DNA from: Eledone cirrhosa
Taxonomy: Eukaryota
DNA length: 64,000 nucleotides
Direction: 5' to 3'
Assembly (NCBI GenBank): GCA_964016885.1
Contig: OZ024740.1
Coordinates: forward strand, 145,266,001 to 145,330,000
Below, one piece after another: positions 15,321 to 59,490 of the stretch. Under the pieces are notes generated by a model, which was not told where the DNA came from, ran no database searches, and saw nothing but the letters and a program-made list of their open reading frames with translations. Positions within the stretch are counted from its first letter, which is position 1, and every line of letters begins with the position of its first letter. A program made the position numbers and the translations under genes.

Positions 15321-16086
<766 letters not shown>

Positions 16087-27560: not shown

Positions 27561-29768
27561 TTAATGCCATGAACCTTCCCAATGATACATATCTGCTCTT
27601 TTTTTTAATATATTCCTCAACTTAAAACTTTGTTTTAAGTCGAACTATGGTTAAGTTTTTAAGCCGGTGGAGAAGATGTAAGTTTAATTTCTTCTTATAA
27701 CAATGATTTTTCGTTTTAAATAAACACTTTATGTAGCTAAAGGTATACAATTGCCTGTAAATGAATCAAATTTATTAGGAATGACAGCAGACAGAAAGAA
27801 TTACAGCAATGATAACATGCATATATCTAATAACAGCAGGTATACTATTTAAGATGTCAGTGATAGCACATAAGTAGGAAATGTTCTAAGCAGCAGTTTA
27901 CTGTTTCCAAATTTCTATAAACTGTTAAATTATAATCATATTGGAGAAACTGTTGATTTGAATATATTTAAAATTTTCAGCTATATTTTAAGATAAGTAT
28001 ATGATGATGCTATCTAGGTATAATGAGATAAATATTATTTCAAATGAAGATCTTACCTGCTGAATGCAGAAACTTAGAGATGCAAGATGGAACTGTAAGA
28101 AGATAATCTTAATGTAGATTGCTGCGATGGTGCTCCGCGATGGAACTAAACATCAAGTTTCAGCGCCTTTTAGCTTTTGTACGACTATTTTTCGCGGCAA
28201 TCCGTGGGGGCTGGAATATACTCTGATTAGGTAGGAGGGGGGAGAAGTATTTGTGATTGATGCCGTATATCAGTTGATTTTACCATTGTATTTGCATAGG
28301 TCTTTTTTTTATCTATTTTTTATGGCTTTCATAAAAATATATATGGTAGGCGGGGGTGGGGTAAAAGGAAATAAAGAAAGATGAAAACATGCAAGAAGTA
28401 GGAGGGCGGGAAGAAACAGACATTTCTGTGGGTGAAATAAATGGGCTTGTGTTGATAGTTGTGTACGTGAGTCGATGTCTTAACATATAAGCAATTGTTT
28501 ATGCGTATTTATGTAAAGTTCTATATGTGTGTGTACACGTGTATGTATGTTTACATCTGTGTGAGTTGGTTTGGGCTGTTACATTGTAGATTACCATTTT
28601 TAGTGAAAGTGTGTGCTTATTTGCGATTTCGTCTCAACGGACAGATAAATGTGCTTGCGTAGGTTTACGTGCTTATTTAGTGCATCTATCTGTCTGTGTG
28701 TATAGCATGGCTTTATTGGATTCGGGTCGGAGTGGGGTAGCAAAACTATGGGTGGAGTGTTGAAATCGTTTACAGCCAATAGCAGGTAGAGAAGAACAAG
28801 GAAGGAAACTGATCACAAAAGAAGGTGGGTACACGCTGAAGATATCACTGTGGAAGAGCTAGGTTCTATAGGATTTGCCAACATTCTGTTTTTATTTATT
28901 TATTTATTTACATTCTCTAAACGGTTTGGCACCACTATCTTCTTAGTTCTATATCGGAATAAGTTTTCATCTCAATCGCACACGTTTCTCTACCTCCCTA
29001 ACCTCTCTGCCACCAACCGACTACACTTTTCTTCGCTGTCTTCATTTCCGACTTCCACAAAATTAAGCTTCAATTTGCACAGACGTTTTCTTGTTTTCTT
29101 TTACCTTCTTTTTCTACATCTGTTTTTCTTTTTTCCTTTCTTTTTCTTTAGCTTTATTTCCTTTTATTTTTATTTATTTATTCATTTCTTTTCCTTCGTT
29201 AATTTTTTCTTTCTTTCTATAGTTTTTATTTATTTATTTCTATGTTATCACTCATTTGCACCACGCCAGACTATATTCTTTTTCTTTGTTTTACTTCAAA
29301 TATATTTCCGTTTTCTTCATATTTATAACTTTTTATTTGAAGTCTTATTCTAGGATTGAAAAAATGTTTTCTTTACTTCTCTGCCGTCAGTTAATAGCTC
29401 TAAATTTAATTTAAAGGCGTTTTCTAAATACATTCAGTAGAAGTGAGCACAGATTATAGAAATAATAATAATAATAAAAACTCAAACTGCAAATATATTT
29501 GTACATTTTGGCACACTTCTTAGTGATTATAAACATTTCGTATAAAACTATGTTATTTGTAATTTCACACTAAAAGTGATGTGACGTTGTTATTTATTTA
29601 TATGATGTAATAACGTTGGCGAAGTATAACTAACTAGTCATTCTGATGTAATTTGTAGCAGTTATACGAAGTGGCAGTCATTTATTAGAACAAGTACATC
29701 ACCATATGTCAGTACCCAATTAAATATTCAATTTATTGAAATATCATCTTTTTAATAATGATGATAAT

Positions 29769-31520
29769 ATGGGATGGATAGACTAGAAAAAGGCATTTGA
29801 CATGGTACCTCATTCTTGGATCACCAAAAGCCTAGAGATCTTCAAGGTGGCAGATAACATCAGACAGTTGTTGAGCAAAAGTATGAAGTCCTGGAAAACA
29901 GAGTTAACATCGGCTGGAGAATCCTTGGGAGGCGTGAAGATCAAGAGAGGTATCTTCCAGGGAGATAGTCTGTCTCCTCTGTTGTTTGTCCTTGCCCTGA
30001 TGCCCCTGACCATTATACTGCGAAAAGTGAGAGCAGGATACAAGTTGGGAAAGGGAGAGCTTACCATCAATCACCTCCTCTTCATGGACGATATTAAGCT
30101 CTTCGGGAAAAGTGTGAAGGAGTTGGGTGTGCTTGTTGACACTGTCCGTATTTTCAGCAATGATATATGTATGCAATTTGGTATTAGTAAGTGTGGAGTC
30201 CTTGTGATGAAGAGGGGTAAATTGAGCAGAAGCAACGGAATCCAGGTACCAACAGGTGAGATGATAAAGGAAATTGACACTGAAGAAGGATACAAATATT
30301 TAGGTGTTCTGGAGGCTGATGACATCAAAAACAAAAAAATGAAGGAATTGATAAGATCTGAATACATTCGGAGAGTAAGGAGCATATTAAAATCACATCT
30401 GAAGAGTAGGAATGCCATGAGTGCAGTAAATTCCCGAGTTGTGTCTATAATTAGGGACAGTGCGGGAATTCTGAGATGGAATGTTGCTGAACAAAAAGAA
30501 ATGGATTGGAAGACTAGGAAGCTATTGACTATCTACAACATGTTCCACAAGAGGAGTGATGTCGATAGACTCTACTTAAGGAGATCTGAAGGTGGAAGAG
30601 GTCTTATCAGCATAGATGACTGTGTTCAGATGGAGAAAAACAACCTACACAAATACGTGACTGATAGTAGGGAGCCAATGCTCAGGATTGTACTGAAGGA
30701 GAGGACAATAGACCAGGGGATGTCCAAGGAGGAAATAACAACAAGGAGAAAGAGCAACCTTCATGAAAAATCCCTTCATAGTACCTTCTTTGAGAAAACT
30801 GAATTCAGAGATCCACAGACATGGAACTGGTTGAAAAGAGCAGACCTTAAAAAGGCTACAGAAGGAATGCTAATGGCTGCACAAGAGCAGGCCCTCAAAA
30901 CGAAGTGGCTGAAACACCATATTTACAAGGAGGAGGCTAGCCCACTGTGTAGGATCTGTGGAGAGAGAGAGGTGACTGTGGCTCACATTGTATCCGAGTG
31001 TAAACACCTAGCCCAGACTCACTATAAAGGCTGGAGACATGATGTGATGGGCAGGGTGATCCACTGGCACCTATGCAAAGTAAACAATTTACCACATTCT
31101 GAGAAGTGGTATGAGCATAAGCCAGAGTCGGTGATAGAAAATGATCAGGTGAAGGTGCTATGGGATTTTAGGATACAGACGGACAAGAAACTGGAACACA
31201 ATAGACCTGACCTGGTGGTTTTAGACAAAGAAAAAAGATCGTGCCTGATAGTGGATGTAGCCTGCCCATTCGACACAAGAGTGCAAGAGAAGGAGAGGGA
31301 GAAAATCAACCGATACCAGGACTTAAAGTGGGAGGTAAAAAGGATTTGGAACTGCCATGAAGTCAAAGTGGTCCCGATTGTCATAGGCGCACTAAGTACT
31401 ATCTCAAAGAGTTTCCAAGGATAGTTAAAGAAAATTGGTCCCGCCCCGCTTTTTGGAACACTTCAAAAGGCATGCTTGCTGAGAACAGCAAGAACCCTCC
31501 GATACGTCCTGAATATCTGA
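29769..31520 (+). pseudogene. RT-zinc knuckle-restriction-like endonuclease ORF (partial; two in-frame TAG stops)
   Basis: WID*KKAFD, GIFQGDSLSP, HLLFMDDIKLF, YKYLG, GGRGL, CRICxxxxxTVAHIVSEC, RHD, RPDLVVLD, EKINRY, IVIGAL; after TAG 31422-31424 the frame continues LKKIG..LQKACLLRTARTLRYVLNI*. Confidence 0.9.
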
Positions 31521-31603
31521 GGCTGCAGGTAGTGGCTTGATATTCATTTCAACAAACTTTCCAGTTAAATATCATCAATGATTGAGACTCAAAGAACAAC
31601 AAC
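29769..31603 (+). mobile_element. R4/Dong-like RLE non-LTR retrotransposon, 5'-truncated (copy R1)
   Basis: Starts after TAATAATGATGATAAT, encodes RT + CCHC + RLE, has a short 3' UTR and ends in (AAC)(AAT)n. Confidence 0.9.
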
Positions 31604-31627
31604 AATAATAATAATAATAATAATAAT
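31604..31627. repeat. (AAT)n spacer/target between R1 and Tx1-A
   Basis: Direct reading; equivalent tracts at 29753-29768, 34025-34031, 34671-34707, 40771-40794, 46836-46868 and 52632-52652, and (ATT)n at 57939-57992. Confidence 0.95.
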
Positions 31628-34024
31628 GATTTCATTTATTAGCCACAAGGGCCGACATGTAGGGGGACAATGCAAAGACAGGGACAGTGGGGGGTTACAA
31701 TAAGGTCGAGTAAAAGTGCACAATGGCAAGACTAATTTAACAATGAAGATGTAAAAAATATAAAATAAACTATACAACAAAATAAATTCCCCTATAGAGG
31801 GTGGACGACTCAGGGGTGACTCAAGTACCCCACCAATCCTGAACCACCCTGCGCTTCTAGGGCACCCAGGGAGAGCACCCCTCTCCTCAAGTTAGCTAGC
31901 CTATAGGCCATTCTCGCCACATTCATCCACCTTTTAGTAAATGTACTGGGGGGAAGCACTTCTCTCTCCACCCTCACCTTCCTTTCCAGGTAAAACTTGA
32001 AGAAGTTGATGAGGGATTGGCCGAAGAGAAAAGTGTCTGTCTTCAGTCCTTTTAATCTGGTCCACCATATAACCTCTTTCGCAACGGCCACCAGGCAGAG
32101 GAAAATTTCCTGCTCTTCCTGACCTAAGGAAGGCGGCGGGTCGATCTTCACTATGGATTCGGCCGATAGCCGGATTTGTTCCACACGCGACAGTAGCTGT
32201 TCGACATAACTCCACAAGTCAGTAATGCGCGGACATTGGACAAGTACGTGCAGAACGGTTTCGTCGTTCTGTGCGCATCTTGGGCAGGTCCGTCTGACAG
32301 CACTTCCGTGCCTGTAGAGTTTATCCCGAACCGGCAGTGCCCCCGGTAGCACTGCCAAGCGAGGGATTTCTGGATATTGTCCATCGTCCCCGGCTCGAAA
32401 GTCCTCCGGTACAGACAAGTCAGTTCGACTTCGTCGAGGCCCAAAGCTTCTCCGAGTACGTCATCGCACTTGCCCACCACTAATCCTCTATAGAACTCGA
32501 GAGTGGAAGTTCCACTGACACATTGTCCGCTTGGTAGAGGGCAGTGAGTGCCTGGCAACATTCCAGGTGCCAGTCACCCAGTCTTGGTCTTTTCTTGACC
32601 CAGGACTGCAGCTCAGTCAAAGAAACGAGCTGGGGAAAGGCCCATCTGATAAACGGCGACCACACCTGTTCACCGTTTAGGCAGAATATCTGGTGATGTC
32701 GCAGCCTCAACGCATGTCTGCGCATCATTAGCCACGGCATGCCCAGCCCTCCGCGTAGAGGGAGCTGGCAGCAGATGGACCACCTCACCAACCGAACTTG
32801 TCCCCTCCACAAGAATTTGAAGAGGAGCCGTTCCAGCTTGACGAGGCGCGGACGGAGGAAAGGTACGACGGTCAGGCGGTAGTAGATGACGGACGTGATG
32901 TACGCATTCGCCACCTCCGCGCGACCTTTCAGTGATAGCTTCCTCCCAGCCCATTTTTGGGTGAGACTGGCTACTCTGCTCGTTACCTCGTCCCAATTCT
33001 TTTCCACCTGGAGGTCTGGTCCGAACCAAACCCCGAGCAACTTTACCGGTCCGTCCGTCCAGCGCCCCACGACGCTGTTGGACGGCATAGGCTTTCCTCT
33101 CCAGGTTTTGAGATGCAAGCTCACCGACTTTTCCGGGTTAAGTTTGGCTCCTGTCAACCTTTCATATTCCTTCAATAAGGTGCCGACCACCTCGATTTCT
33201 GAGGTGTCCGACACCATCACGGTGATGTCGTCCGCATAAGCCGACACCGCCCTTCCACGTCCCGGTTCGAGCGGGATGACCTGCAACAGCTCCAGCTTCC
33301 GCAGTAAATGCTAGAGAGTCAATACGTACAGAAGGGAAGAGAGAGGGCAACCTTGACGGACCGATCGGGAGAGCCGAAATGGTTCCGAGAGGTGGCTATT
33401 AACCTTGACCACCGAGCGTGTGCTGCTGTGCATTGCAGCGATCCAGCTTCTGAAGACAGGGCCGAAGCCAGCCGCTTTGAGGACAAACTCCAGATACCGA
33501 TGGTTGACCCTATCGAATGCTTTCGATTGATCTAAATTGATCAGTGCCCCACCGAAGCCAGGTTTACACCCTACCCTCTCTATGATGTATCGGATGAGGT
33601 GGAGATTGTCGTGTATGGACCTGGATGGGATTGCGCAAGTTTGCGCCTCCCCAACCAAATCCTCGACGAAAAGCGCCAATCTCTTTGCTAACACCTTGGC
33701 CAAAATCTTAAACTCTCTGTTGAACAGAGTTATGGGCCTGAAGTTGTCTAATGTATCCCTCTTGTTCTCGTCTTTCCTTATCAGCGTCACCACGCCTCTG
33801 CTCACAGAACTGGGAATACTCCCATTCTGTTGCCAGTTGCAGTAGAGTGCTTCGAGGAGATCGGAGAACAAGTCTGGCATATTTACGTAAATCTCGTAGG
33901 GCAGGCCATCCAAACCGGGTGACTTGCGCCTCATGCAGCCGACAAGGGCGTCCTGAATTTCGGCTGAAGTAATTGGCCTTTCGCAGCGCTCAGCGTCGAC
34001 CGTCGAGATGCGCGGCAAGCCGTC
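31628..34024 (-). mobile_element. Tx1/L1-clade non-LTR retrotransposon copy A, 5'-truncated (subfamily 1)
   Basis: ORF2 fragments KSPGLDGL, NFRPITL, LDQSKAFDRV, VRQGCPLS, AYADD, CPRC..ETVLHVLVQC; 3' end CCCTTGTGGCTAATAAA then (ATT)n; TAATAAT at the 5' junction. Confidence 0.92.
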
Positions 34025-34056
34025 TAATAATCAGAACGAAGTGGGTGAAACACCAT

Positions 34057-34669
34057 CATTGTATCCGAGTGTAAACACCTATCCCAGACTCACTATAAAG
34101 GCTGGAGACATATGATAGGCAGGGTGATCCACTGGCATCTATGCAAAGTAATCAATTTACCACATTCTGAGAAGTGGTATGAGCATAAGCCAGAGTCGGT
34201 AATAGAAAACGATCAGGTGAAGGTGCTATGGGATTTTAGGATACAGACGGACAAGAAACTGGAACACAATAGACCTGACCTGGTGGTTTTGGACAAAGAA
34301 AAAAGATCGTGCCTGATAGTGGATGTGGCCTGCCCATTCGACACAAGAGTGCAAGAGAAGGAGAGGGAGAAAATCAACCGATACCAGGACTTAAAGTGGG
34401 AGGTAAAAAGGATTTGGAACTGCCATGAAGTCAAAGTGGTCCCGATTGTCATAGGCGCACTAAGTACTATCTCAAAGAGTTTCCAAGGATAGTTAAAGAA
34501 AATTGGTCCCGCCCCGCTTTTTGGAACACTTCAAAAGGCATGGTTGCTGGGAACAGCAAGAACCCTCCGATATGTCCTGAATATCTGAGGCTGCAGGTAG
34601 TGGCTTGATATTCATTTCAACAAACTTTCCAGTTAAATAACATCAATGATTGAGACTCAAAGAACAACA

Positions 34670-34670
<1 letters not shown>
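34057..34670 (+). mobile_element. R4/Dong-like element, heavily 5'-truncated (copy R2)
   Basis: Near-identical to 30986-31600 (RLE domain and 3' UTR); ends in (AAT)n. Confidence 0.92.
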
Positions 34671-34711
<41 letters not shown>

Positions 34712-34959
34712 TCTTTATTAACCACAAGGGTTTACATAAAGTAGACATTAAGGACAGTACAGGACAATACAGGTCGGTACAAATGGGTATTTCTGCGTGT
34801 AAAAAACAAAAACAGAGGATGTAACAAAAAAATAACAATGAAAAATTCCCCAATAGTGGGGAGACTTCCGAGGGACATTTGTGGAGAAAGCCCATTAAAA
34901 GGCCACAGTGACCCTGACCACCAGGGCAAGTGCCCTTCTCCCAGTTTTCCACCTTTAAT

Positions 34960-37900
34960 TTACAGACACATACTCAGAGTAGGCCCATTCACTCAGGCCA
35001 TTCTTGCTTCTCTCACCCATCTTTCAACAAAATGCTGGGAAGAGAGCACTTCCCTCTCTACCCTAATTTTCCTTTTCAAATGAAATTTGAAAAAGTTAAT
35101 CAGGGCATCACCGAAGAGGTAAGTGCTCGTCTTCAGCCCTTTCAAACGTGTCCACCATACTATCTCTTTCGCCATGGCCACCAGACAGATAAAAACTGCC
35201 TGCCCTTCCAGGCTAAAGGAAGAGGGCGGGGCAATCCTCACGATGGACTCAGCTGATAGCTGGATCCGTCCTACACGCAGGTGTTCGACATAAACCCACA
35301 AGTCAGCAATGCTCGGGCACTGGACGAGTGCGTGCAGGACGGTTTCGTCGCCCTGTGCGCATCTCGGACATGCCCGACTGACGGCACCTCCATGCCTGTA
35401 GAGTTTATCCCGAACTGGCAAACTCCTCGGTAGCACTGGCAGGCCAGGGATTTCTGGAAGTTGTCCATAGGCTACGGCACGAAAGTTCTTCCGAAGAGAT
35501 TGGTTAGTTGATTTTCGTCGACGCTTAGAGTTTCCCCAAGTACGTCGTCGCTCTTCCCCTCCACTAATCCTCTACAGAACGCCAAGGTGGAGTTTCCACC
35601 GATCACATTTCCCGATTGGTCGAGGGCTGTGAGCTCCTGAAGACATTCCAGTCTCCAAGCGCTCCCTCTCGGTCTTCGCTTGACCCAGGACTGCAGCTCC
35701 GTCAAGGGGACGAGCTGAGGAAAGACGCGTCTAGCAAACGGCAACCACACCTGATCACCGTCGAGGAAGAGGTGGAGATGTCGTAGCCTGAGCGCGTGTC
35801 TGCGCATCATCAGCCACGGCATGCCCAGCCCTCCACGTAGCGGGTGTTGACAGCAGATGGACCGCCTGACCATCGGACCGCGTCTCTTCCACAAAAAGCG
35901 AAAGAGCAAACGCTCCAGCGCAGTCAGGCGGGGCTTAGGACAAGGTACGACGGTCAGGCGGTAGTAGATGACGGACACGATGTACACGTTAGCCCCTCCG
36001 CTCGACCTTTCAGGGATAGCTTCCTCTTCGCCCATTTCTGGGTGAGAGAAGCCACCCTGCTCGTCACCTCGTCCCAGTTTATGTCCGTCTGGAGGTCCGA
36101 ACCAAACCAGACCCCTAGCAATTTAACCGGTCCGTCCGTCCAGCGCCCGACGACGCTGTTGGACGGCATGGACCTGCCTCTCCAGGTGCCGAGCTGCAGG
36201 CCCACTGACTTTTTCTGGTTGATCATTGCTCCTGTCACCGCTTCGTATTCTCTTGTAGTGCCGATCGCCTCGATGTGTTTGGCGTTCGACACCACTACGG
36301 TGACATCGTTCGCATATGCTGCCACGGATCTTCCGCATCCTAGTTCGCGCGGGACGCCCCTCAACGTCTCCAGTTTGTGCAGTAATGGCTCGAGAGTCAA
36401 TACGTACAAGAAGGACGAGAGGGGACATCCTTGGCGGACCGAGCGCATGATGTTGAACGGTTCCGATAGGTGACCGTTCACTCTCACCACAGAACAGATG
36501 CCGCTGTGCATGGCAGCGATCCAGCCTCTGAAGACGGGCTCAACGCCAGCCGCCTTCAGGACTGCCGCTAGGTAACGATGGTCTACCCTATCGAAAGCTT
36601 TCGACTGATCTAAATTGATCAAGGACCCACCCGTGCCAGGTTCCCTAGCTACCCTCTCTACGATGTATCGCATGAGGTGGAGGTTGTCGTGGATGGATCT
36701 GTCGGGAATGGCGCATATCTGCGCCTCTCCCACCAGACCACCAACGACAAGCGCCAACCTCTTTGCTAGCACCTTGGCCAAAATCTTGAACTCTATGTTT
36801 AGCAGAGTTATGGGCCTGAAATTATCTGTTATCCCCCTTGTTGGATCCTTTCTCAGCAGCACCACCGCTCCTCGGCTCACAGAGCTGGGAATTCTCCCGT
36901 TCTGTTGCCAGTTGCAGTAGACGTCCGCCAAGAGGCCTCCGAACAAGTCTGGCATCTGTACGTAAAGTTCATAGGGCAGACCATCCAAACCAGGCGATTT
37001 ACCCATTGTGCAGCCAATCATTGCCTCCCGTACTTCAGCGACTGTTATCGGATTTTCGCAAACTCCGCCTCAGTGACCGAGAGCCGCGGCAGTCCGTCGA
37101 GGTAGACACTAAAGTCCATCCCTCGATCCGGCCCGCCGCTGCCCCCGAACAGCTGTGTGAAGTGTCGTTGAAAAGCTTCACACATTTGCCCGGGATCGAG
37201 TAGCATACGCCCGTCGTGGTCCACCAAAGACCGGATCGTGGCTTTGTTGCCACGACGCGCTCCGCCACTCGGGCCCATTGAACGGTTTTCGTCCCCTCGT
37301 GTCTGAGAGCACGCACCATAGCTCTGACAACGCAGCCTTCGTGCTTTGCATTGAAGAATTGGTCAAGGGCCAATTTCGCCGCAAGTACGTCGGTCACGAT
37401 GCCTTTGCTAAGCGCCTCGTCTAATTTTCTAACTAGTTGTCCCTCTGCTCTATTTTTCTCTATTGCTAAAGCCTTACTAAACCCAATGGACTCTATTCTA
37501 ATCGCTCTTTTCAGAGCAAACCACCACTTGTTGTTGACGATGACCCCGTCAACGCTCGCTTAACTAGTTCGCTAATCCGGTCTCTGTAGGCCTTGCGCGC
37601 TGGTAAGGACGCGTTTAGCTTCCAGTAGCCGGGTCCTCGTCTATGAAGCCTATCTAAGTCAAGCACACAGATCACGAATTTGTGGTCCATGTAGCTGACT
37701 ATCTTGAATTTTGGACAGCCTATGCTAGACCTATCTATTTCCCTACAAAATACTCTATCTAGATATGATCTGGATTAAACGATGCGGTTTGTCCATGTCC
37801 ACATTGGCACATTCGGGAAATCCAATCGGTACCTGTCAGACAGTTCAAAACGCCTGAGCAGGTTGGTGAGGCTCTTGCACCCTCCTCCACTATCCGTTAA

Positions 37901-38362
37901 TCCCACACAGTCCCAGCGTGCATCTAAGATCCCGTTCCTGTCGCCCACTAACACTAAAGAGCGGGACGTTCCTAGAAAGGTCTCTAGACGCCGGAAGAAA
38001 TCAGGCCGCCCTGCTCCTGTCGGGGCATAGACGGCCACTAGCCTGAAAGCTTGCTCGTCTCCGCTGGTCACGCCCAGCACCACCAACTTACCTTCTGGGT
38101 CCAGGAAGATGGCCCGTATGGCGAGATCCAAACCTCTCCGAAAAAGCACAGCAACTCCTCCCCCAGATCCAGGACGGCTGGGAGATGCGTACACATCGTA
38201 GCCGCCGAAGATCGGTGCGAAGGCCCGTGCTTCGGAGATTCTGGTCTCGCTGATGGCCACTACATCTATGTTTAGTGACCTGAGGTCGTTGAGCAGGTGG
38301 CCCTGCTTCCATGACGACCCCAAGCCACGCGCATTTATGCTGCCTATTCTGAGTGAGGTCAT
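34960..38362 (-). pseudogene. ORF2 of copy B: APE endonuclease-RT-C-terminal zinc finger, frameshifted
   Basis: SINARGL, ISET, LVGDxN (APE); KSPGLDG, DQSKAFD, QGCPLS, YAND (RT, mutated from YADD); CPRC..H..C. Confidence 0.92.
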
Positions 38363-38396
38363 GTTGAAATGGAGTGGAAAAGATGGGAAAGACCAC

Positions 38397-44468: not shown

Positions 44469-44499
44469 GTTGGATGAGAAACGAGGCAAGTGAGAAAGG

Positions 44500-46565: not shown

Positions 46566-46835
46566 AGTCTCCCTCTGTGTTGTCTGACAGCGCTCTCTCT
46601 CTTTCTTGTGTTATCCATGTTGACATTTTTTTTTTCTTTCAAAAAATATTTTTACACAAATACGACATCCCGTAAAGGGGTGCCGTATTATTTACGAGTG
46701 AACCCCTGTATTAGGTGGGTCACTTCTTCTAAACTTTTATCAAATTTTAAACTTGAATAAAAGGTTTAGAACGGTTGAAAACGAGGTAAAACGTTGAAAG
46801 AAACTGGAGGCGATAAGAAGCGTGGCTTCACCAAC

Positions 46836-46869
<34 letters not shown>

Positions 46870-47111
46870 TTTTCTTTATTAACCACAAGGGTTCACATAA
46901 AGTAGACATTAAGGACAGTACAGGACAATACAGGACGGTACAAATGGGCATTTCTGCGTGTAAAAAAACAGAGGTTGAAATAAAATAACAAAGAAAAATT
47001 CCACAATAGGGGGGAGACTTCCGAGGGACATATGTGGAGAAGGCCCATTAAAAGACCACAGTGGCCCTGACCACCAGGGCAGGTGCCCTCTCCCAGTTTT
47101 CCACCTTTAAT

Positions 47112-50100
47112 TTACAGACACATACTCAGAGAAGGCCCATTCATTCGGGCCATACTTGCTTCTCTCACCCATCTTTCAACAAAATGCTGGGAAGAGAGCA
47201 CTTCCCTCTCTACCCTGATTTTCCTTTTCAAATGAAATTTGAAAAAGTTAATCAGGGCATCACCGAAGAGGTAAGTGCTCGTCTTCAGCCCTTTCAAACG
47301 TGTCCACCATACTATCTCTTTCGCCATGGCCACCAGACAGATAAAAACTGCCTTCCCTTCCCGGCTAAAGGAAGGGGGCAGGGCAATCCTCACGATGGAC
47401 TCAGCTGATAGCTGGATCCGTCCTACACGTGACAGCAGGTGTTCGACATAAACCCACAAGTCAGCAATGCTCGGACACTGGACGAGTGCGTGCAGGACGG
47501 TTTCGTCGCCTGCGCGCATCTCGGACATGCCCAGTTGACGGCACCTCCATGCCTGTAGAGTTTATCCCGAACTGGCAAAGCTCCTCGGTAGCACTGCCAG
47601 GCCAGGGATTTCTGGAAGTTGTCCATAGGCCCCGGCCCGAAAGTCCTTCCGAAGAGATTGGCTAGTTGATTTTCGTCGACGCCTAGAGTTTCTCCAAGTA
47701 CGTCGTCGCTCTTCCCCTCCACTAATCCCCTATAGAACGCCAAGGTGGAGTTTCCACCGATCACATTGCCCGATTGGTCGAGGGCTGTGAGCGCCTGAAG
47801 ACATTCCAGTCTCCAAGCGCTCCCTCTCGGTCTTCGCTTGACCCAGGACTGCAGCTCCGTCAAGGAGACGAGCTGGGGAAAAACGTGTCTAGCAAACGGC
47901 GACCACACCTGATCACCGTCGAGGAAGAGGTGGAGATGTCGTAGCCTGAGCGCGTGTCTGCGCATCATCAGCCACGGCATGCCCAGCCCTCCACGTAGCG
48001 GGTGTTGACAGCAGATGGACCGCCTGACCATCGGAGCGCGTCCCTTCCACAAGAAGCGAAACAGCAAACGCTCCAGCGCAGTCAGGCGGGGCTTAGGACA
48101 AGGTACGACGGTCAGGCGGTAATAGATGACGGATGCGATGTACGCATTCGCCACCTCCGCTCAACCTTTCAGGGATAGCTTCCTCTCGGCCCATTTCTGG
48201 GTGAGAGAAGCCACCCTGCTCGTCACCTCGTCCCAGTTTTTGTCCGTCTGGAGGTCTGGACCGAACCAGACCCCTAGCAATTTAACCGGTCCGTCCGTCC
48301 AGCGCCCGACGACGCTGTTGGACGGCATGGACCTGCCTCTCCAGGTGCCGAGCTGCAGGCCCACTGACTTTTCCTGGTTGATCATTGCTCCTGTCACCGC
48401 TTCGTATTCTCTTAGTGTAGTGCCGATCGCCTCGATGTGTTTGGCGTTCGACACCACTACGGTGACATCGTCGGCATATGCTGACACGGATCTTCCGCAT
48501 CTTAGTTCGCGCGGGACCCCCCTCAACGTCTCCAGTTTGTGCAGTAATGGCTCGAGAGTCAATACGTACAATAGGGACGAGAGGGGACATCCTTGGCGGA
48601 CCGAGCGCATGATGTTGAACGGTTCCGAAAGGTGACCGTTCACTCTCACTACAGAGCAGATGTCGCTGTGCATGGCAGCAATCCAGCCTCTGAAGACGGG
48701 CCCAAAGCCAGCCGCCCTCAGGACTGCCGCTAGGTAACGATGGTCGACCCTATCGAAGGCGCATGTCTGTGCCTCTCCCACCAGACCACCAACGACAAGC
48801 GCCAACCTCTTTGCTAGCACCTTGGACAAAATCTTGAACTCTGTGTTTAGCAGAGTTATGGGCCTAAAATTATCTATGTTATCCCCCTTGTTCGGATCCT
48901 TTCTCAGCAGCGCCACCGCTCCTCGGCTCACAGAGCTGGGAATTCTCCCGTTCTGTTGCCAGTTGCAGTAGACGTCCGCCAAGAGGCCTCCGAACAAGTT
49001 TGGCATCTGTACGTAAAGTTCATAGGGCAGACCATCCAAACCAGGCGATTTACCCCTTGTGCAACTAGTCATTGCATCCCGTACTTCAGCGGTTGTTATC
49101 GGCTTTTCGCAACACTCCGCCTCAGTTGCCGAAAGCCGCGGCAGTCCGTCGAGGTAGACACTAAAGTCCATCCCTCGATCCGGCCCGCCACTGCCCCCGA
49201 ACAGTTGAGCGAAGGGTCGCTGAAAAGCTTCACACATTTGTCCGGGATCGAGTAGCATGCGCCCGTCGTGGTCCACCAAAGACCGGATCGTGGCTTTGTT
49301 GCCACGACGCGCCTCCGCCACTCGGGCCCATTGAACGGTTTTCGTCCCCTCGTGTCTGAGAGCACGCACCATAGCTCTGACAACGCAGCCTTCGTGCTTT
49401 GCATTGAAGAATTGGTCAAGGGCCAATTTCGCCGCAAGTACGTCGGTCGCGATGCCTTTGCTAAGCGCCTCATCTAATTTTCTAACTAGTTCTCCCTCTG
49501 CTCTATTTTTCTCTATTGCTAAAGTCTTACTAAACCTAATGGACTCTATTCTAATTGCTCTTTTCAGAGCAAACCACCACTTGTTGTTGACGATGGCCCC
49601 CGTCAACGCCCTCATAACTAGTTCGCTAATCCGGTCTCTGTAGGCCTTGCGCGCTGGTAAGGACGCGTTTAGCTTCCAGTAGCCGGGTCCTCGCCTATGA
49701 AGCCTATCTAAGTCAAGCACACAGATCACAAATTTGTGGTCCGTGTAGCTGACTATCTTGAATTGTGGACAGCCAATGCTAGACCTATCTATTTCCCTAC
49801 AAAATACTCTATCTAGATATGATCTGGATGACCCTATGCGATTTGTCCAAGTCCACATTGGTACATTCGGGAAATCCATTCGGTACCTGTCAGACAGTTC
49901 AAAACGTCTGAGCAGGTTGGTGAGACTCTTGCACCCTCCTTCCCTATCCACTAATCCCACACAATCCCAGCGTGCATCTAAGATCCCGTTCCAGTCGCCC
50001 ACTAACACTAAAGAGCGGGACGTTCCAAGAAAGGTCTCCAGACGCCGGAAGAAATCAGGCCGCCCTGCTCCTGTCGGGGCATAGACGGCCACTAACCTGA

Positions 50101-50419
50101 AAGCTTGCCCGTCTCCGCTGGTCACGTCCAGCACCACCAACTTACCTTCTGGGTCCAGGAAGATGGCCCGTATGGCGAGATCCAAACCTCTCCGAAAAAG
50201 CACAGCAACTCCTCCCCCCGATCCCGGACGGCTGGGAGATGCGTACACATCGTAGCCGCCGAAGATCGGTGCGAAAGCCTGTGCTTCGGAGATTCTGGTC
50301 TCCTCGCTGATGGCCACTACATCTATGTTTAGTGACCTGAGGTCGTTGAGCAGGTGGCCCTGCTTCCATGACGACCCCAAGCCACGCGCATTTATGCTGC
50401 CTATTTTGAGTGAGATCAT
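47112..50419 (-). pseudogene. ORF2 of copy D (APE-RT); 752-aa open stretch with an in-frame RT deletion and later disruptions
   Basis: QTCA|FDRV lacks ~38 aa (IPDRSIHDN..LDQSK) present in A, B, C and E, including the first catalytic Asp. Confidence 0.92.
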
Positions 50420-50453
50420 GTTGAAAAGGAGTGGAAAAGATGGGAAAGACCAC

Positions 50454-52423
50454 TTACCTTACTTCTCGTAGGGGAAGGACGGTTTTTCCATCCTTTTCAC
50501 TGCTTGTGGCCTCCTCAGGAAGGATGTCCTTATAAATCCTCCTGGAGAGTGCTTGTCGGAAGTCTCCGATGTCTTTGGGGAATTTTTGTTTTAGTGTCAT
50601 GTACGTTTTCTGTGTGATGCGAGTGATTTGTATGTGTGGAGGTGGTGTGAATTTTGGGGTTGTTGTGTAGTCTTTTTCTGTGATGCTGGTGTTGTGTTGG
50701 ATGTAGTGTAATAATTGCTTGTTCAAATTTAATGCTGTGTAGTGTGTATCGTTTTGGTTGTTTTGTTTTGTTTGCGTTTGTTGTGGGTTTGTTTCTGTTT
50801 CGCATTTTGGTGACTTTTGTGGTGTAGGTGATGGTGGTGTTGGAGTTAATGATGGTGATGGTGTTGGTGTTTGGGTTGATGGGGTTGGTGATGCTGGTGT
50901 GGATTGTGGCATATCTGTCCTAACTTTTTTGTTTCTTAGTTTATTTGTTTCCCTCTGTATTTTGTTTTTGGAGGGGGAAGGAAGAGAATTTTTTCTTTTT
51001 TGGTTTCTTTTTTTTTTCCGGATATCGTTTCCCACTCCTCGTCGTCACAATCTGTCTCCAGTTGTGATAGGCGGGGGAGTGGAAAATCCTCCACAGCCGT
51101 TAGTTTTGGTTGTGGTGTGGTGGATGGTGTAGGCGCTGGTGCTAGTTCTGAAGCGTTGGGTGGTGGTGGTGTTGGTTTTGCTACTGTTGCTGGGGTTGTT
51201 GCTGTTATAGTTGCTTCTGTTGTTGCTGCTACAGTTGTTGCTGCCATCTCTGCTACTGGTGGTGTTGATGGTTGTGTCACTGGGGTGGGTAGGAGAGGTG
51301 GCCTCAACCTTTTAGCCTGAGGGCTGAAAGCCCTTAGGTGGGTTCCTTCACCACAAACGACACACCTAGGTCTTCTGCCCTCGACAATTACCGTGAGGTG
51401 GCTGCCGTCAGTGAGGTCTATTACCTCTGGGATCTCCTCAATGCTTTTTTGGTCCGCTTGGATCAGGAGCTCCATCCCAGATCCGGACCAGTTTTCCTGC
51501 TTTTCTTTTGCTATTGCTATTATTTTCGTGTTGGTTCGATGCCGGCGGGGACGGCCGCTATTAGCCAGGGAATTTCGATGGCCGGTGGAACGTGGGTCAC
51601 CCTGATCTTTACGAGTCTCTGGCCACAATAGCTTGGGACGAGTGTGAAGTCGTCACTTTTTAATGGGGCCATGGAGTGTTCTCTAGCCTCCTCTGGTGTT
51701 TCAAAGAACACGTCCACGGTTCCATACTTTTGCCCACGTCTGATGTGGGTTTTTCTTGCCCACACATGTCCCAAAGCTTTTTGGATTTGGGACTCGGATG
51801 CCCGTTCCACTCGGCGCGATTTTACATTTATTGTTCTATACGACACGGTGCATAGGCGCCGATGCTCCATTTTATTAGGTGGGGGGGGGGGGGGTGAGGC
51901 TGACCCTGTACCCATCTTTCTTTACCATTTGTTTGGCATTTTCTAAATCTTCCTGAGTTACTGTAAATGCTTCGAATTGTTTTGCTACTCTGGCGAAACT
52001 GAGGGGGGGGGGGTTTATAATGTCATTGTTGTTGTCGTTGCTATCGTTAATATTAATTTTAGTTTCAGTTGTGGTGGTGGTGACGTCAGTCGTCTTTGGT
52101 GGGGAAGAGTCCATTTTGCTTGATTTCATTTCGACATCACGAGTTAATTTATTTTTTTCTTCTTTTGTTTCTGTTGTCGCGGTGGTGGTGGTGGTGGTGG
52201 TTGTCGCGGTGGTGGTGGTGGTGGTGGTGGACGCTTTAACACCTGCAGTCATTGGTAATGGCGGGAAATGAATGTCTGCCTGAGACAAATTTAAAATATT
52301 GCTACTGCTTATATTTTTTTTTGTGTTGGCAAACGTAGTAACATTTACAATGGTGGTGTCGGTGTGAGGTGTTATTTTGTGAGGAAGGTTTTCAGCTGCT
52401 TCGTGCAGAGGTGAAGTAGCCAT
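50454..52423 (-). pseudogene. ORF1 of copy D, frameshifted partly at homopolymers
   Basis: Thr-rich N-terminus, SFARVAK, CVVCGEGTHLRAFS (degenerate knuckle), KFPKDIGDFR. Confidence 0.85.
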
Positions 52424-52652
52424 TTTTTTTCAAAGAAATTTTTTGATAATAATAAAAGTTAAAATTTTGGGCACAAGGCTCCAATCTTTTTGGGTGTCCT
52501 TTTCGGAAAACAATGTATGTGTGCTTATAAACAGTTAACAATAAAATTTTCCATAAATGGCAATTTTTAACAAACGGAAATAACAAACCTTTGCGGAGCT
52601 CACGATGATACGATTTACTACGTAGGTCGCCAATAATAATAATAATAATAAT

Positions 52653-55600
52653 GGTTTCTTTATTGGCCACAAGTGCTAACATGAAGAAAAACATTACAGA
52701 CGGCACAGAACGGTACAGGACGATACAAAGTGGGTTTTGGCCGTGTAAAAAAGGTTATAACAAGAAGATAGAAATATCAAAAAATTCAAACAACAAGGAT
52801 TCCCCAATAGGGGGAAACTTCCGAGGGTCACTCGTGGCGAAAACCACACAAAAGACCACGGGAGCAAGCGCCCTCTCTCAGTTTTCCACTCCTCAGTCTA
52901 CAGACGCATATTCAGAGCGGGCCCGTTCACTCGGACCAGACTCGCCACTTTCACCCACCTTTCAACAAACTTATTTGAAGACAGCACTTGTCTCTCCTCC
53001 CTGATTTTCCTCTTCAAGTGAAATTTGAAAAAGTCAATCAGGGATTCGCCGAAGAGGAAAGTGTCCGTCTTCAATCCTTTCAACCTTGTCCACCATACAA
53101 TCTCTTTTGCCATGGCCAACAGGCAGATGAAAATTGCCTGCCCTTCCTCCTCCTTAAAGGAGGACGGCGGGGCTATCTGCACAATCCACTCAGTCGATAA
53201 CCGGATCCGTCCTACACGTGACAGCAAATCTTCAACATAGCTCCACAAGTCAGCAATGTTCGGACACTGAATGAGTGCGTGCACAACGGTTTCGTTGCTC
53301 TGTGTGCATCTCGGACAGGTTCGGCTGACGGCACTTCCGTGCCTGTAGAGCTTATCTCGAACCGGCAACGCTCCCCGGTGGCACTGCCAGACCAGGGATT
53401 TCTGGAAGTTGTCCATAGGCCCCGGGCTGAAAGTTCTCTTGAAGAGAGCGAACAGCTGATCGTCTTCGATGCCTAGGGTCTCCCCAAGAATGTCGTCACT
53501 CTTCCCCTCCACTAGTCCTCTATAGAACGCCGAGGTGGATGTTCCACCGATACTAGTGACCAGCTGATAGAAGGTTGTGAGCGCTTGGAGACATTCTAGC
53601 TTCCAAGCATTATCCCTCGGCCTTTTCCTGATCCAGGACTGCAGCTCCGTTAATGAAACGAGCTGTGGGAAAAACATGCCTGGCAAACGGTGACCACACC
53701 TGTTCACCGTCAAGGAAGCACCAGGGATGTCGTAGCCTCAGCGTGTGTTTGCGCATCATCAGCCACGGCTACCCAGCCCTCCGCGCAACGGGTGTCCCTT
53801 CTATAAAAAGCGGAAGAGGATGCGCTCATTTTTATCAGAGTTGGGCCGGGGCAAGGGACGACGGTGAGGCGGTAGCAGATGACGGATGCGATGTACGCTT
53901 TCGCCACCTCCGGCCGGCCTTTCAGGGACAGCTTCCACTCGGCTCATTTCTGGACGAGGGAGGCCACCCTGTTCGTTACTTCGCTCCAGTTTTTCTCCAT
54001 CTGGAGGTCCGGACCGAACCAGACCCCGAGCAATTTGACCGGTCCTTCCGTCCAGCGCCCACAACGCTGTCGGGCGACATGGACTTGTCTCTCCAGGTGC
54101 CGAGCTGCAAACCCACCGACTTTTCCTGGTTAAACTTTGCTCCTGTCACTGCTTCATATTCCTTGAGAGCGCTGCCGAGCATCTGGACATGTCCGGTGTT
54201 TGACACCACCACGGTGACGTGGTCGGCGTAAGCCGATACGGATCTCTCACATCCCAGTTCGCGTGGGACGTCTCTCATCGCCTCCAATTTGTGCAGTAAC
54301 GACTCTAGGGCCAATACGTACAAGAGTGACGAGCGGGGACAACCCTGACGGACCAAGCGCATGATGCTGAACAGCTGTGACAGATGACCGTTCACCTTCA
54401 CAACTGAGCAGATATCGCTGTGCATCGCAGCGATCCAACCCTTGAAAATGGGCCCGAAACCAGCCGCCTCGAGGACCGCCGCCAGGTACCGATGGTCGAC
54501 CCTATTAATGCCTTAGATTGATCTAAGTTGATCAGGGCCCCACCCGTGCCAGGTTCCTTAACCACCCTCTCTATGATGTATCGCATGATGTGGAGGTTGT
54601 CGTGGATGGATCTGTCTGGAATGGGTCATGTCTGCGCCTCTCCTACCAAATTACCGACGTCGAGCGCCAATCTCGTTGCTAACACCTTTGCTAAAATCTT
54701 GAAGTTTGTGTTTAACAGAGTTATGGGCCTGAAGTTGTCTATAACGTCTCCTTTGTTCGGGTCTTTTCTCAACAGCGCCACCGCTCCCCGGCTCACAAAA
54801 CTGGGAATGCTCCCGTTCTGCTTCCCGTATTTCACCAGCTGTTATCGGCTTTTCCCAATACTGCACTGTGGACGTCGAGAGCTGCAGCAGTCCCTCGCGG
54901 TATGCACTGAAGTTCATACTCCGATCTGGCCCGCCGCCGCTCCCAAACAGTTGAGCAAAGTGCTGCTGAAAAGCCTCACACATCTGCTCGGGTTCGAGTA
55001 ACATGTGCCCGTTTTGGTCAGGAAAGGATTGAATTGTGTCTTTGTTGCCACGTCACGCCTCCACCACCCGGGCCCATTGGACAGCTTTTGTCCCCTCTTG
55101 TCTCAGAGAACGTGCTCTAGCTCTGACAACGCAGCCTTTGTGCTTTGCATTGAAGAATTGGTCGAGTGCCGATCTTGCCGCAAGCACGTCGGTTGCAATG
55201 CCTGTCCTAAACGCTCCTTCTAGCTTTCTAACTAGCTCTCCTTCTACTCTATTTTCCTCTATCTTTACTCCTTTGCTAAACCTTATTGATTCTACTCTAA
55301 TTGCCCTTTTCAGGGTAAACCACCACCTGTTGTTGACGATCGCACCCGTCAACGCACGCTTAACTAATTCGCTTATCCGGTTTCTGTAAGCTTTGTGCGC
55401 CTTATCTGTTTCTCCACACAATACCCTATCTAGATACGATCTGGATGACCCGTTGCGGTTTGCCCATGTCCACATTAGCACATTCGGATAATCCAGTCGA
55501 TACCTGTCAGACAGTTCAAAACGTCTGAGCAGGTTGTTGAGGCTTTTACATCCTCCTCCCTTATTTACTAGCCCCACATATTCCCAGCGTGTATCTAAGA

Positions 55601-57579
55601 TACCGTTCCAGTCACCCATTAACAGTAAAGAACGGAACTTTCCAAGAAAGGTCTCTAGACGTCTGAAGAAATCTGGCCGTCCTGCCCTGTTGGGGCATAG
55701 ACGGCTACTAATCTGAAAGCATTGCCTTCGCTGCCGGTCACGTTCAGCACCACCGACTTACCTTCTGTGTCCAAGAAGATGGCTCGTATCGCGAGATCCA
55801 AGCCTCTCCGAAAAAGCACAGCAACTGCACCCCCCGCTCCCGGACGGCTGGGAGATATGTATACATCGTAGCCGCCGAAGATCGGTGCGAAGGTTCGTGC
55901 TTCGGAGATTCTGGTCTCGCTAATGGCCACCACATCTATGTTTAGTGACCTGAGATCGTTAAGAAAGTGGCTCTGCTTCCAAGATGACCTCCAGGCCACG
56001 TACATTTATACTGCCTATTCTAAGTAAGGCCATGTTCGGTGAGGAATGGAGTAAGTGAAAAAGGATCACCTACCCTGATCGTGTGGGGAAGGGACAGTTG
56101 AACCGTCCCTTTGGCTGGTCAGGGGTGTTTCCAAGATGATGTCGGTGTATATCCTCTTGGTAAATGACCCTCTGAAGTCTCCAACTGCGCTGGGGAATTT
56201 TTCTTTTAAATGTTTGTAATGTTCTATTTTAATTTCAATAATGCTTATATTTTTCGGGAGAGTTCTTGGTGTTGGTGGGGTGTAGTAAATTTTGTCCGTA
56301 ATGTCTGTGTGCTGCTTTATATGTTCTAAGAGTTCTTTATTTGCCAAGTTTATGGCGGTGTAATGTTTTTGGGGTGGTTTGGTTTTGTTGCTGTCTTCTT
56401 GTTGCTGGTGTTGGGTATGTGTGTCTTGTGTTTGCGATGTTGATGTTTGTGGTGATTCCGGTGGTGGTGATGTGGTGGTTGTTGGTGGTGATGCTTGTGG
56501 TGGTGATGGTGGTGGCGTTGCTGCGAGTCGCCTTGCAGCCTTTACCCCTCTTTGTTTGCCTTCGCTTTTGGAGGGTGAAGCTAAGGGTTTTTTTATTTTT
56601 TGTGGCAGACCGTTTGCCACTTCACTCCCGCCTCAGACTCCTTGTCGGATTCCGTGGCATCTGGGAGGTATGTGCTCCATGGCTGTTGGTGGTGGTAGTA
56701 GAGCCCTCTCCGGCGATTTTGTTGCTGGTGCAGCTACTGCAAATGTAGCTACTGGTGTTGCCGCCACTGATACTGCTGCTTTAGTTGTCCGTGGCCTTGG
56801 TACGGGTGCCACGGACGTTGCTCTCCTACTCACCGTGGAAGGGGCTTCTGCGTATGTTGCCTGCCCTACTCTTGGTAGCAGCGGACCAGGCATTCGAAGG
56901 AGCCTGTCTTCGCTGTCTTCTGCGGGCAAAAGGCCTTGAGGTGACCCTTTGACCGACAGAGATAACATTTTGGCCGTCTTCCTTCCACGCTTATAGGGAG
57001 TTGGAGTCCTTCCTCGAGGTCGATGATATCGGGGATAGTGTCGATACACTCCTGGTCAGTTTGTATAAGCATTTGCATGGCTATACCTGACCAGTTCTCT
57101 CTCCCTATGTTCTCTACTTGCAGCATGGTCGCCCTGTCCTCGATTCCAGAAAGGACAGACGCGACTAGCCAAGGTATGGGCACGTCGGGTGGGACCTGGG
57201 TCACTTTGACCCTCAAAATTTTCTGCCCGCAGTAGGAGGGCACCAAGACTATCTCCTCACTCTTTAGGGTTTCCAAAGAGTGAGACTTCGCGTCTTGAGG
57301 GGTCGCGAAAAGTTCGTCCACTGTGGCATACTTTCTGCTTCGGGTGATGTGGGTTTTGTGCGCCCAGACGCACCCCAAGGCCTTTTGGATTTGAGCCTCC
57401 GTGGCTCTCTCCAGCCGATGTGACATTTTGCTTACGGTGCGGTAAGTTACCGTCCGTAGCTGCTGGTCCTTGAAAAAATCGGGTGGAGGTTTCAGGGAAA
57501 CTCTATTGGCGTTTCTTGTCACCATGGCCCTTGCGACTGCCATCTCCTCCTCTGTGGCTAACACTGTTTCGATATTTCG
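52653..57579 (-). mobile_element. Tx1/L1-clade copy E (subfamily 3), truncated within ORF1
   Basis: ORF2 remnant 52898-56033 with internal deletions; ORF1 remnant 56066-57579 with CYLCRSKGHLKAFC; closest to copy C. Confidence 0.93.
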
Positions 57580-57937
57580 TTTGAAAAGGAAAATCATGGT
57601 AGAGAGGGAAGTGCTCTCTTCCCAGCATTTTGTTGAAAGATGGGTGAGAGAAGCAAGAATGGCTCGAGTGAGTATGTGTCTGTAAATTAAATGTGGAAAA
57701 CTGGGAGAGGGCACTTGCCCTGGTGATCAGGGTCACTGTGGCTTTTTAATGGGCTTTCTCCACGAATGTCCCTCGAAAGTTTCCCCCCTACTGGGGAATT
57801 TTTCATTGTTATTTTTTTGTTACATCCTCTGTTTTTTTGTTTTTTACACGCAGAAATGCCCATATGTACCGTCCTGTATTGTCCTGTACTGTCCTTAATG
57901 TCTACTTTATGTAAACCCTTGTGTTTAATAAAGAAAG

Positions 57938-57938
<1 letters not shown>
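57580..57938 (+). mobile_element. Tx1 3'-end fragment, copy G (subfamily 2), inverted relative to the rest of the array
   Basis: LKRKIMVEREVLSSQHFVERWVREARMA plus a B/D-type 3' UTR, AATAAA, then (ATT)n. Confidence 0.92.
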
Positions 57939-57990
<52 letters not shown>

Positions 57991-57992
<2 letters not shown>

Positions 57993-59490
57993 TCTTTATT
58001 ACCCACAAGGGCCGAAACATGAAGGACAATACAAAAACAGGGCCAGTGGTGGTTTACATAAAATCGTGTAACAAAGGATAACAATAAATAATGCAATTAT
58101 AACAATAAAAATTCCCCAATAGGTAGGAGTACCACCCAGGAGTAAAATAGGAGCCCCTAAGATCCTAAACCACCCTAATCTCTAAGAACACCATAGAAGG
58201 GTGTCCATCTCCTCTCGAAATTTTCCAGCCTACAGACGTATGGTCAGAGTAGGCTCACTCCCTCGGTAATTCTCGCTACATTCACTCACCTTTTAACAAC
58301 TGTACTAGGGGGCAGCACCTCCCTATCCAGCCACACCTTCCTTTCCAAGTGGAACTTGAAAAGGTTGATGAAGTCTTGACCGAAGAGGAAAGTGTCTCTC
58401 TTCAGTCCTTTCAGCCACATCAACCACACGACCTCTTTTGCTACAGCCACCAGGCCGAGGAAAACTGCCTGCCCTCCCCGACCAAAAGAAGACAGCTGGG
58501 CGATCTTCACGGTGGACTCGGTCGATAGCCGGATCTATCCTACATTCGATAATAGCTGTTCGACAAAACACCACAAGTTAATGCACGGACATTGGACGGA
58601 TGCGTGCAGAATGGTTTCGTCGTTCCGCGCGTTTCTCGGACAGGTCCGTCTGATAGCACTTCCGTGCCTGTAGAGTTTTTTCTCGAATCAGCAGTACCCC
58701 CAGTAACACTGCAAAGTCAGGGATTTCTGGAAATTGTCCGTAATCGCCCACTCGAAGTTCTCCGAAACACGCAGGCCAATTCGATTTTGTTGACGCCCGA
58801 AATCGTTATCGCATCTGTCCTCTGTAGAACGCTAGAGTGGAATTTCCATTGACCGCATTACCCGATTGGTAAAGCGCAGTGAACGCCTGACAACATTCCA
58901 AAAGCCATGCGCCCAGTCGCCATCTCTTCTTGACCCAGGACAGCGGTTCAGTCAAAGAGACGAGCTTGTTCACAGTTTAAGAATATCTAGAGATGGCGTA
59001 GCCTCAGTTCTTATTCGCCTGGCCCAAACCAGACCCCGAGCAACTTCACCGGTACCTTCGTCCAGTGTCCGACGACGCTGTTGAATTGCATGGATTTGCT
59101 TCTCCAGATACCGACCTGCAAACCCGCCGACTTTCCGGGTTGATCTTTGGTTCCGTCAGCCTTTCATATTCCGCTAAGAAGTTACTGACCATCTCAATTT
59201 TCGAAGTGTTCAACACTATCACGGCGATGTCCTCCGCATAAGCCGACATAGCCCTTCTCCGTCCCCGTTTGAATGGGATACCATGCAACAGCTCCAGATT
59301 CCGCAAAACGGCTCCAGGGTCAGCACATATAGAAGGGAGGTGAGAAGGCATCTTTGACGGACCAAGCGCGTGATCTGAAACGGTTCCGATAAGTGGCCAT
59401 TTTCTCTGACCACCGAGCTGATGCCGCTGTGACCGAAAACGGCTGCCTTGAGGATAGACTCCATGTATCGATAGTTGACCCATCGAAAGC
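57991..59490 (-). mobile_element. Tx1/L1-clade copy F (subfamily 1), old, 5'-truncated, internally deleted
   Basis: 3' UTR resembles A; degenerate RT (AYAED) and C-terminal motifs; homology ends at AFD near 59490. Confidence 0.88.

Follow-up and report, generated by a model that had tools for sequence, protein, structure and literature searches.

Tx1-like and Dong-like retrotransposons at (ATT)n/(AAT)n tracts of Eledone cirrhosa and a mixed array built on this repeat

The window analyzed in this study is a stretch of 64,000 nucleotides (nt) of Eledone cirrhosa DNA on contig OZ024740.1. The contig is 443 Mb long, of which the window covers 145.27-145.33 Mb, and the genome measures 3.0 Gb. An array of nine abutting retrotransposon pieces without long terminal repeats (non-LTR) occupies positions 29769-59490, with almost no unique DNA, as an initial annotation of the sequence had described. 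Seven pieces are copies of L1-group elements, called Tx1-like here, and two are Dong/R4-like; their order is R1 (+), A (-), R2 (+), B, C, D and E (all -), G (+) and F (-). We consider it probable (approximately 0.72) that a Tx1-like lineage nicks (AAT)n with its own endonuclease, inserts and leaves the repeat on both sides, which produces a chain of long interspersed nuclear elements (LINEs). In the element's own sense the target is (ATT)n. The AAT target named in the initial annotation is the same duplex, but the residents that use it in the AAT sense are the Dong/R4-like family.

Repeat tracts at the ends of Tx1-like elements

The text of PMC4494074 gives the Kojima criterion, by which a family is target specific when more than 20% of its flanks carry one sequence type. 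The Tx1-like elements lie far above this share at both ends. Exact 21-nt matches in the whole genome placed 2167 of 2308 D-type 5' ends (93.9%) and 321 of 325 A/H-type 5' ends (98.8%) directly after TTATTATT, and reversed-pattern controls for this count gave 0. The initial annotation had proposed (AAT)n-specific insertion with target left on both sides, and had stated that non-AAT sequence at most 5' flanks would speak against it; the genome-wide counts, with ATT tracts in these proportions, support the proposal. In the fetched loci, which cover four subfamilies, an ATT run was found at 157 of 159 5' ends and AAT at none, and the sampled Tx1-like 3' ends (n=226) carried ATT in 210 cases, AAT in one and neither in 15. 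The 5' junction has the phase ATT|G in 72 of 72 D, 33 of 33 H and 28 of 30 B copies, and the 3' junction reads xCATTATT in 184 of 217 3' ends. The 3' motif is conserved across subfamilies whose 3' untranslated regions (UTRs) are otherwise 53-60% alike.

The tracts could instead belong to the element, as a self-made tail and a transcribed upstream head, with copies landing unspecifically in AT-rich DNA and piling up where they are tolerated. We regard this as quite improbable. A carried head would give the single phase seen at all 5' ends, and neither empty alleles nor empty orthologous sites were seen in the fragmented contigs of one sample and the restriction site-associated DNA sequencing of a second. 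However, truncated copies cannot carry a head. A search by 3' ends found 87 Tx1-like loci, of which 32 had their 5' break within the fetched DNA and were scored, and 55 extended beyond it. The scored copies are broken at many positions, and 14 of the 32 abut a perfect ATT run of at least 9 nt; among 4857 sampled background positions, such a run stood before 0 on one strand and before 6 on the other (0-0.1%). In addition, if the element carried a repeat head into ordinary DNA, a Dong-like element broken before the 5' tract should resume on the 3' side. It continued after the 3' tract in 0 of 10 cases (four of them hand-picked), which indicates that the tract preceded the insertion. The 5' tract has a median of 22.5 nt behind the tails of a short interspersed nuclear element (SINE; n=18) and 39 nt behind Tx1-like ends (n=35), a difference that also argues against a carried head and is confounded by family age. 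Thus, the 94-99% of 5' flanks together with the ATT runs at truncated copies indicate that the tract is the target and not only a tail.

If the Tx1-like lineage selects its own target, the apurinic/apyrimidinic endonuclease (APE) domain would nick at a T/A step of the (AAT)n strand, much as human L1 nicks TTTT/AA, and the nicked end would prime reverse transcription from the conserved 3' motif and AUU repeats. The second strand would be opened at ATT/ATT. This nick and opening would produce the fixed phases C|ATT and ATT|G, and the repeat left on both sides would be the target for the next copy. The catalytic positions of the APE align with those of the human L1 endonuclease, and its hairpin loop is identical in D and H and variable in a sister clade. 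The text of PMC1950540 reports the TTTT/AA nick of human L1 and an effect of the hairpin loop on target choice.

The main alternative is that the (AUU)n RNA tail pairs with (AAT)n DNA that has been nicked otherwise, by a Dong-like nuclease or through breaks in the repeat, while the APE is unselective. Dong-like elements cut the same duplex and adjoin many of the copies, tail and target are complementary by construction, and about half of the truncated copies have no 5' tract. We nevertheless consider it unlikely, as every subfamily read has an intact and conserved APE, and a specificity of 94-99% with one 5' phase is hard to obtain from random breaks. The text of PMC4494074 also states that target choice of non-LTR elements rests mainly on the endonuclease.

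Composition and growth of the arrays

The pieces of the array and their joins are listed in Table 1. The array has eight internal junctions. At five of them (R1/A, R2/B, B/C, C/D and D/E) the + strand carries a perfect AAT tract of 21-38 nt, and the G/F junction is the same duplex flipped. Neither the E/G junction nor the right border of the array has a tract. All junctions except E/G had been described as (AAT)n; this is correct for the five and for the exception, but G/F is (ATT)18 and A/R2 retains only two units. The description that no copy lies inside the coding region of another fails, since G is joined within open reading frame (ORF) 1 of E through a short microhomology, with loss of approximately 820 nt of the 5' end of E. 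Twin priming was rejected for E/G; the pieces are of different subfamilies and their break points do not meet. R1 has an open frame of 545 amino acids (aa) and is 96% identical to a genomic copy that has its full length of 4.4 kb. None of the copies in the window retains a complete ORF2, and the longest frame is the 765-aa APE-reverse transcriptase (RT) frame of D, which has a deletion of approximately 110 nt near 48759. Rfam gave 0 matches within the window. An old Tx1-like relative lies approximately 6-9 kb to the right of the window (L426:5911-9265; 71% to D). It has no adjoining AAT tract of at least four units and may represent an older lineage with another or a lost target.

Table 1. Pieces, junctions and SINE copies in the window (positions of the 64,000-nt stretch)
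Feature	Positions	Strand	Description
Left array border	29753..29768	+	Degenerate AAT/GAT tract
R1	29769..31603	+	Dong/R4-like, 5'-truncated; RT, CCHC, PD-(D/E)xK-type C-terminus
R1/A junction	31604..31627	+	(AAT)8 tract, tail-to-tail
A	31628..34024	-	Tx1-like, truncated within RT; 87% to young full-length H subfamily
A/R2 junction	34025..34031	+	TAATAAT only, two-unit remnant
R2	34032..34670	+	Dong-like 3' fragment; likely local duplicate of R1
R2/B junction	34671..34708	+	AAT tract, 38 nt
B	34709..40770	-	Tx1-like, full-length, decayed; ORF1 with CCHC knuckle; ORF2 APE-RT-zf
B/C junction	40771..40795	+	AAT tract, 25 nt
C	40796..46835	-	Tx1-like, full-length, decayed
C/D junction	46836..46868	+	(AAT)11 tract
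D	46869..52631	-	Tx1-like, full-length, young (98-99% to other copies)
D/E junction	52632..52652	+	(AAT)7 tract
E	52653..57579	-	C-type copy, two internal deletions, break within ORF1
G	57563..57938	+	376-nt 3' fragment, B/D type, orientation opposite to E; no tract toward E
G tail	57939..57992	+	(ATT)18, directly abutting 3' end of F
F	57993..59490	-	Old rearranged Tx1-like fragment, A/H group (77-79%); 5' side without tract
SINE copy	15835-16036		
SINE copy	17079-17261		
SINE copy	26093-26286		
SINE copy	62947-63130		

Another possible origin of the array is that one or two founders were multiplied, for the most part through tandem or segmental duplication. R1 and R2 have each other as best genomic match, at a divergence of 2.2%, and hold private or near-private substitutions in common (three absent from 66 other copies and two seen once), so R2 is likely a local duplicate of R1. 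At other loci, neighbours differ at 0-6 of 5800 sites and have common deletions and mosaic haplotypes. However, adjoining Tx1-like copies in the array are only 65-78% alike over the last 980 nt, their 5' ends are unrelated and their closest relatives are located on other contigs. Neighbours in the window that belong to different subfamilies and have different ages need separate insertions. Duplication is refuted for A-F and holds for R1/R2 and some other arrays, and we regard it as very improbable as the main origin of this array. The statement that the block is not a simple tandem duplication is upheld for A-F, then, but not for R1/R2. A 640-nt target-site duplication made by A was also considered for R2. 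The geometry would agree with this; on the other hand, R2 is flanked by a TAATAAT of its own, and A seems to be older than the R1/R2 divergence.

A further alternative, extremely improbable in our judgment, is that the assembly joined repeat copies artificially at microsatellites. Read support had been called for, and it was obtained for the two outer edges, which are bridged by read-derived contigs (left 29200-29816, right 59071-60170) from three runs of a single sample, which may be the source of the assembly itself. The interior of the array is spanned by none of the reads or contigs listed for that sample, as an artefact would predict. On the other hand, each copy has its own decay, the window has no N and dozens of other loci repeat this ordered polarity.

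The 30-kb block is a long mixed example and not a unique structure. In a sample of 117 full 5' ends, partly ranked by similarity, the upstream neighbour was a Tx1-like 3' end in 35, a SINE tail in 18, an antisense Dong in 17 and another repeat in 6, and in 41 it matched nothing in the element library. Clustering was also found, as had been expected: the first 100 D 5' ends of the contig leave 99 gaps between neighbours, and 13 of these were at most 13 kb compared with 1.5 expected, 11 of them on the same strand. Eight extended loci, which were chosen because chains were already visible, each contain approximately 18-26 kb of Tx1-like and Dong-like elements.

The growth routes at these other loci differ. 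For example, ten H-type units stand head to tail over 58 kb of the same contig (423.36-423.42 Mb; L453-L459). The inner tracts all have five units, six of the ten have an open 1150-aa ORF2, haplotypes are mosaic between neighbours and two neighbours are identical. The identity, the uniform tracts and the mosaic haplotypes point to duplication or unequal exchange. An H trio elsewhere has a common deletion and 3-6 differing sites. An adjoining D-D pair differs at 57 sites, as unlinked copies do (48-123), which points to separate insertions. Where neighbouring units are similar, unequal exchange or local re-copying would likely add units to those gained by insertion, and E/G/F would be explained by rare off-target joins and rearrangements. 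Two other loci stood out. At L301:1501-9009, two D copies form an inverted pair, joined with their heads outward and bordered by ATT at one end and AAT at the other; like E/G, this is a rearrangement of the inversion type. At L156:5270-10000, a long tandem array with several open frames of 369-526 aa follows directly after a D tail and is approximately 70% similar to the low-complexity start of the B ORF1.

Several points weigh against target selection by the Tx1-like endonuclease. First, 18 of the 32 scored truncated copies are without a clean ATT run, so that truncated 5' ends either have a lower target specificity or have lost its trace. Secondly, nicking by the APE is a prediction, and the junction phase could stem from RNA-DNA pairing. 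Third, the polarity of G/F breaks the pattern, and three of the ten borders and junctions (A/R2, E/G and the right edge) have no real tract. Fourth, the unspanned interior and the lack of an empty site, within the samples named above, count on the same side. Lastly, local duplication likely also makes arrays grow, as at R1/R2 and among the near-identical neighbours elsewhere.

Element families and comparison with known systems

The subfamilies A/F, B/D/G and C/E had been proposed for the Tx1-like copies. The 3'-end identities indicate that B/D/G (93-96%) and C/E (84-88%) are true groups, but A and F are only 73-77% identical. B and D are 94-98% alike in ORF2 and the 3'UTR (400-nt windows) but only 53-62% in the 5'UTR and ORF1, a contrast that reads as a swap of the 5' module. 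Swaps of this kind are known for L1. An intact genomic D copy has an ORF2 of 1152 residues from stop to stop, with the Pfam domains Exo_endo_phos (the N-terminal APE), RVT_1 and zf-RVT, and its best PDB match is human L1 ORF2p (1e-53, compared with 6e-21 for R2). ORF1 is approximately 500 aa in D and 630 aa in H; no Pfam family was above cut-off for it, and a CX2CX4HX4C knuckle is visible in D. An intact ORF2 of the 1150-aa class was found at 4 of 20 D loci and, in two groups of H units, in 4 of 9 and 6 of 10. The H subfamily is very young, with many open ORFs and units that differ at 0-42 of approximately 5800 sites.

On these sequence features, A-G are classed as APE-type LINEs of the L1 group. 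Among named homologues, those closest to the main protein come from Argonauta hians (73% over RT), and D, C, H and the Argonauta protein form one clade (support 100/100) in a tree that holds no named Tx1-clade members and cannot name the clade. A sister clade at approximately 50% RT identity (proteins P0003-P0027 and P0304-P0341) has different endonuclease hairpin loops. The zf-RVT domain can be read as a Tx1 trait. There were no named Tx1 references among the homologue-search and cluster results, and a medaka protein of 1314 aa with the same APE-RT-zf-RVT architecture, not labelled Tx1, is 38% identical over RT and 31% over 901 aa. The architecture and the RT identity to this unlabelled protein make Tx1 membership of A-G likely. 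Among 73 metagenome loci with distant relatives (mostly 21-37%), an AAT run was found at one and ATT tracts at element ends at none, and the viral collection gave no relatives.

The parent element of R1 and R2 is 4.4 kb with a single ORF. Its 1052-aa frame matches R2 best in the PDB (8e-32, compared with 8e-16 for L1), its homologues are approximately 1150 aa with RVT_1 only and no APE, and its C-terminus carries a CCHC motif and, as judged by eye, a restriction-like nuclease motif of PD-(D/E)xK type. By sequence it fits R4/Dong. These residents use the same duplex as the Tx1-like copies in the opposite orientation: their 3' ends carry AAT in 112 of 120 cases, ATT in 0 and neither in 8, and AAT was found at the 5' ends of 11 of 11 full-length copies and, by eye, at those of 9 of 16 truncated copies. 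The Dong-like and Tx1-like families are unrelated. A second, distinct and young Dong-like family was also observed in AAT tracts (L300:443-1440 and L309:38-1430), with copies 97-100% alike and AAT at 21 of 21 3' ends.

This is not a new kind of system, as both microsatellite-targeting LINEs and a (TAA)n-specific Dong have been published, and the Dong part itself is not new. The text of PMC4494074 lists as targets of the Tx1 clade the Tx1D transposon, U2, (TC)n, (TTC)n, (TTCC)n/(TTTC)n, Mariner, Harbinger and LTR elements. The microsatellite users are Kibi at (TC)n, Koshi at (TTC)n and crocodilian families at (TTCC)n/(TTTC)n (texts of PMC4494074 and PMC3812793). The Tx1-like element resembles them, in architecture and flanks and not by phylogenetic comparison, in its two ORFs, its APE, RT and zinc-binding C-terminus, its L1-group affinity and one microsatellite on both flanks in one orientation. 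Unlike Kibi and Koshi, it has an (ATT)n/(AAT)n target that is not TC-rich, an octopod host, thousands of copies and a target in common with an element that has a restriction-like endonuclease. By analogy, it would work like Kibi and Koshi with a different repeat, one held in common with Dong in opposite polarity. Dong, of the R4/Dong clade with a restriction-like endonuclease, is (TAA)n-specific in insects, molluscs, cnidarians and ostracods (texts of PMC7998251 and PMC3812793). R1 and R2 resemble it in the single ORF, R2-group RT, C-terminal nuclease motif and (AAT)n on both sides. The APE element on the same duplex in opposite polarity is the new part.

SART/TRAS and HeT-A form telomeric arrays. 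Like these and like Waldo and Mino, the APE elements described here enter a simple repeat, leave target on both sides and form head-to-tail chains; unlike them, they belong to the L1 group and their arrays are interstitial and numerous, with no sign of a role at chromosome ends. Waldo at (ACAY)n and Mino at (AC)n are R1-clade APE elements (text of PMC3812793), and some HERO families target microsatellites (text of PMC4640811). The likeness to telomeric retroelement arrays that had been drawn is useful as a structural analogy only. A telomere-like function was considered and has no support, the array lying 145 Mb into the contig.

L1-Tx1 and Dong-R4 elements are reported as active or expanded in octopods in the texts of PMC13282606, PMC8967140 and PMC9115989, which give no targets, and the first of these describes recent activity of both in Octopus vulgaris. 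It also reports hotspots of transposable elements in octopus without a cause, and its main text has 0 matches for "target" or "insertion site." In the text of PMC3747384 there was nothing relevant. The literature compared, with Repbase, Dfam, and Figure 3 and the supplements of PMC4494074 outside the comparison, contained no ATT/AAT-specific Tx1 element and no mixed Tx1-Dong microsatellite array, in agreement with the initial annotation, which knew of no such family in cephalopods. On this comparison, (ATT)n/(AAT)n seems to be new as a target of the Tx1 group, with prior cataloguing possible.

A wider proposal, for which we see about even chances, is that an undescribed and still active octopod Tx1-like lineage is the first (ATT)n-specific APE retrotransposon and has converged with the Dong nuclease on one duplex in opposite polarities, with a SINE as its likely passenger. 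As every insertion would renew the target, self-feeding polarised arrays of 15-60 kb would form at many interstitial sites, which would provide a mechanism for the octopus hotspots and a natural AAT-specific integrase. These results matter for several reasons. First, the microsatellites known as targets of APE retrotransposons are few, and one more is added to them. Secondly, the two nuclease types, unrelated to each other, provide a clean case of convergence on one sequence in opposite polarity. Third, young copies with intact ORFs (H) make the reading of a trinucleotide repeat by an APE directly testable. In addition, a possible mechanism is offered for the unexplained hotspots in octopus genomes (text of PMC13282606). 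Lastly, AAT microsatellite markers in octopods should be used with caution, as they often lie within or beside mobile elements.

An associated SINE

An abundant SINE of approximately 190 nt, with a head that is tRNA-like by eye, was observed in the window (Table 1) and at many other loci (for example, L159 and L281). At its end, a motif similar to the 3' motif of the Tx1-like elements is followed by an ATT tail. Its 3' ends (n=107) carry ATT in 63 cases, AAT in one and neither in 43, and 14 of 24 heads follow ATT. The SINE is likely a passenger of the Tx1-like LINE lineage, and its tails likely serve as targets. In addition, L308 and L310 carry it at one and the same position of D (approximately 1911-1926), and L291/L292 at 152-194. 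Such a recurrent position in D would mean either that the SINE prefers the site or that the source copy already contained it.

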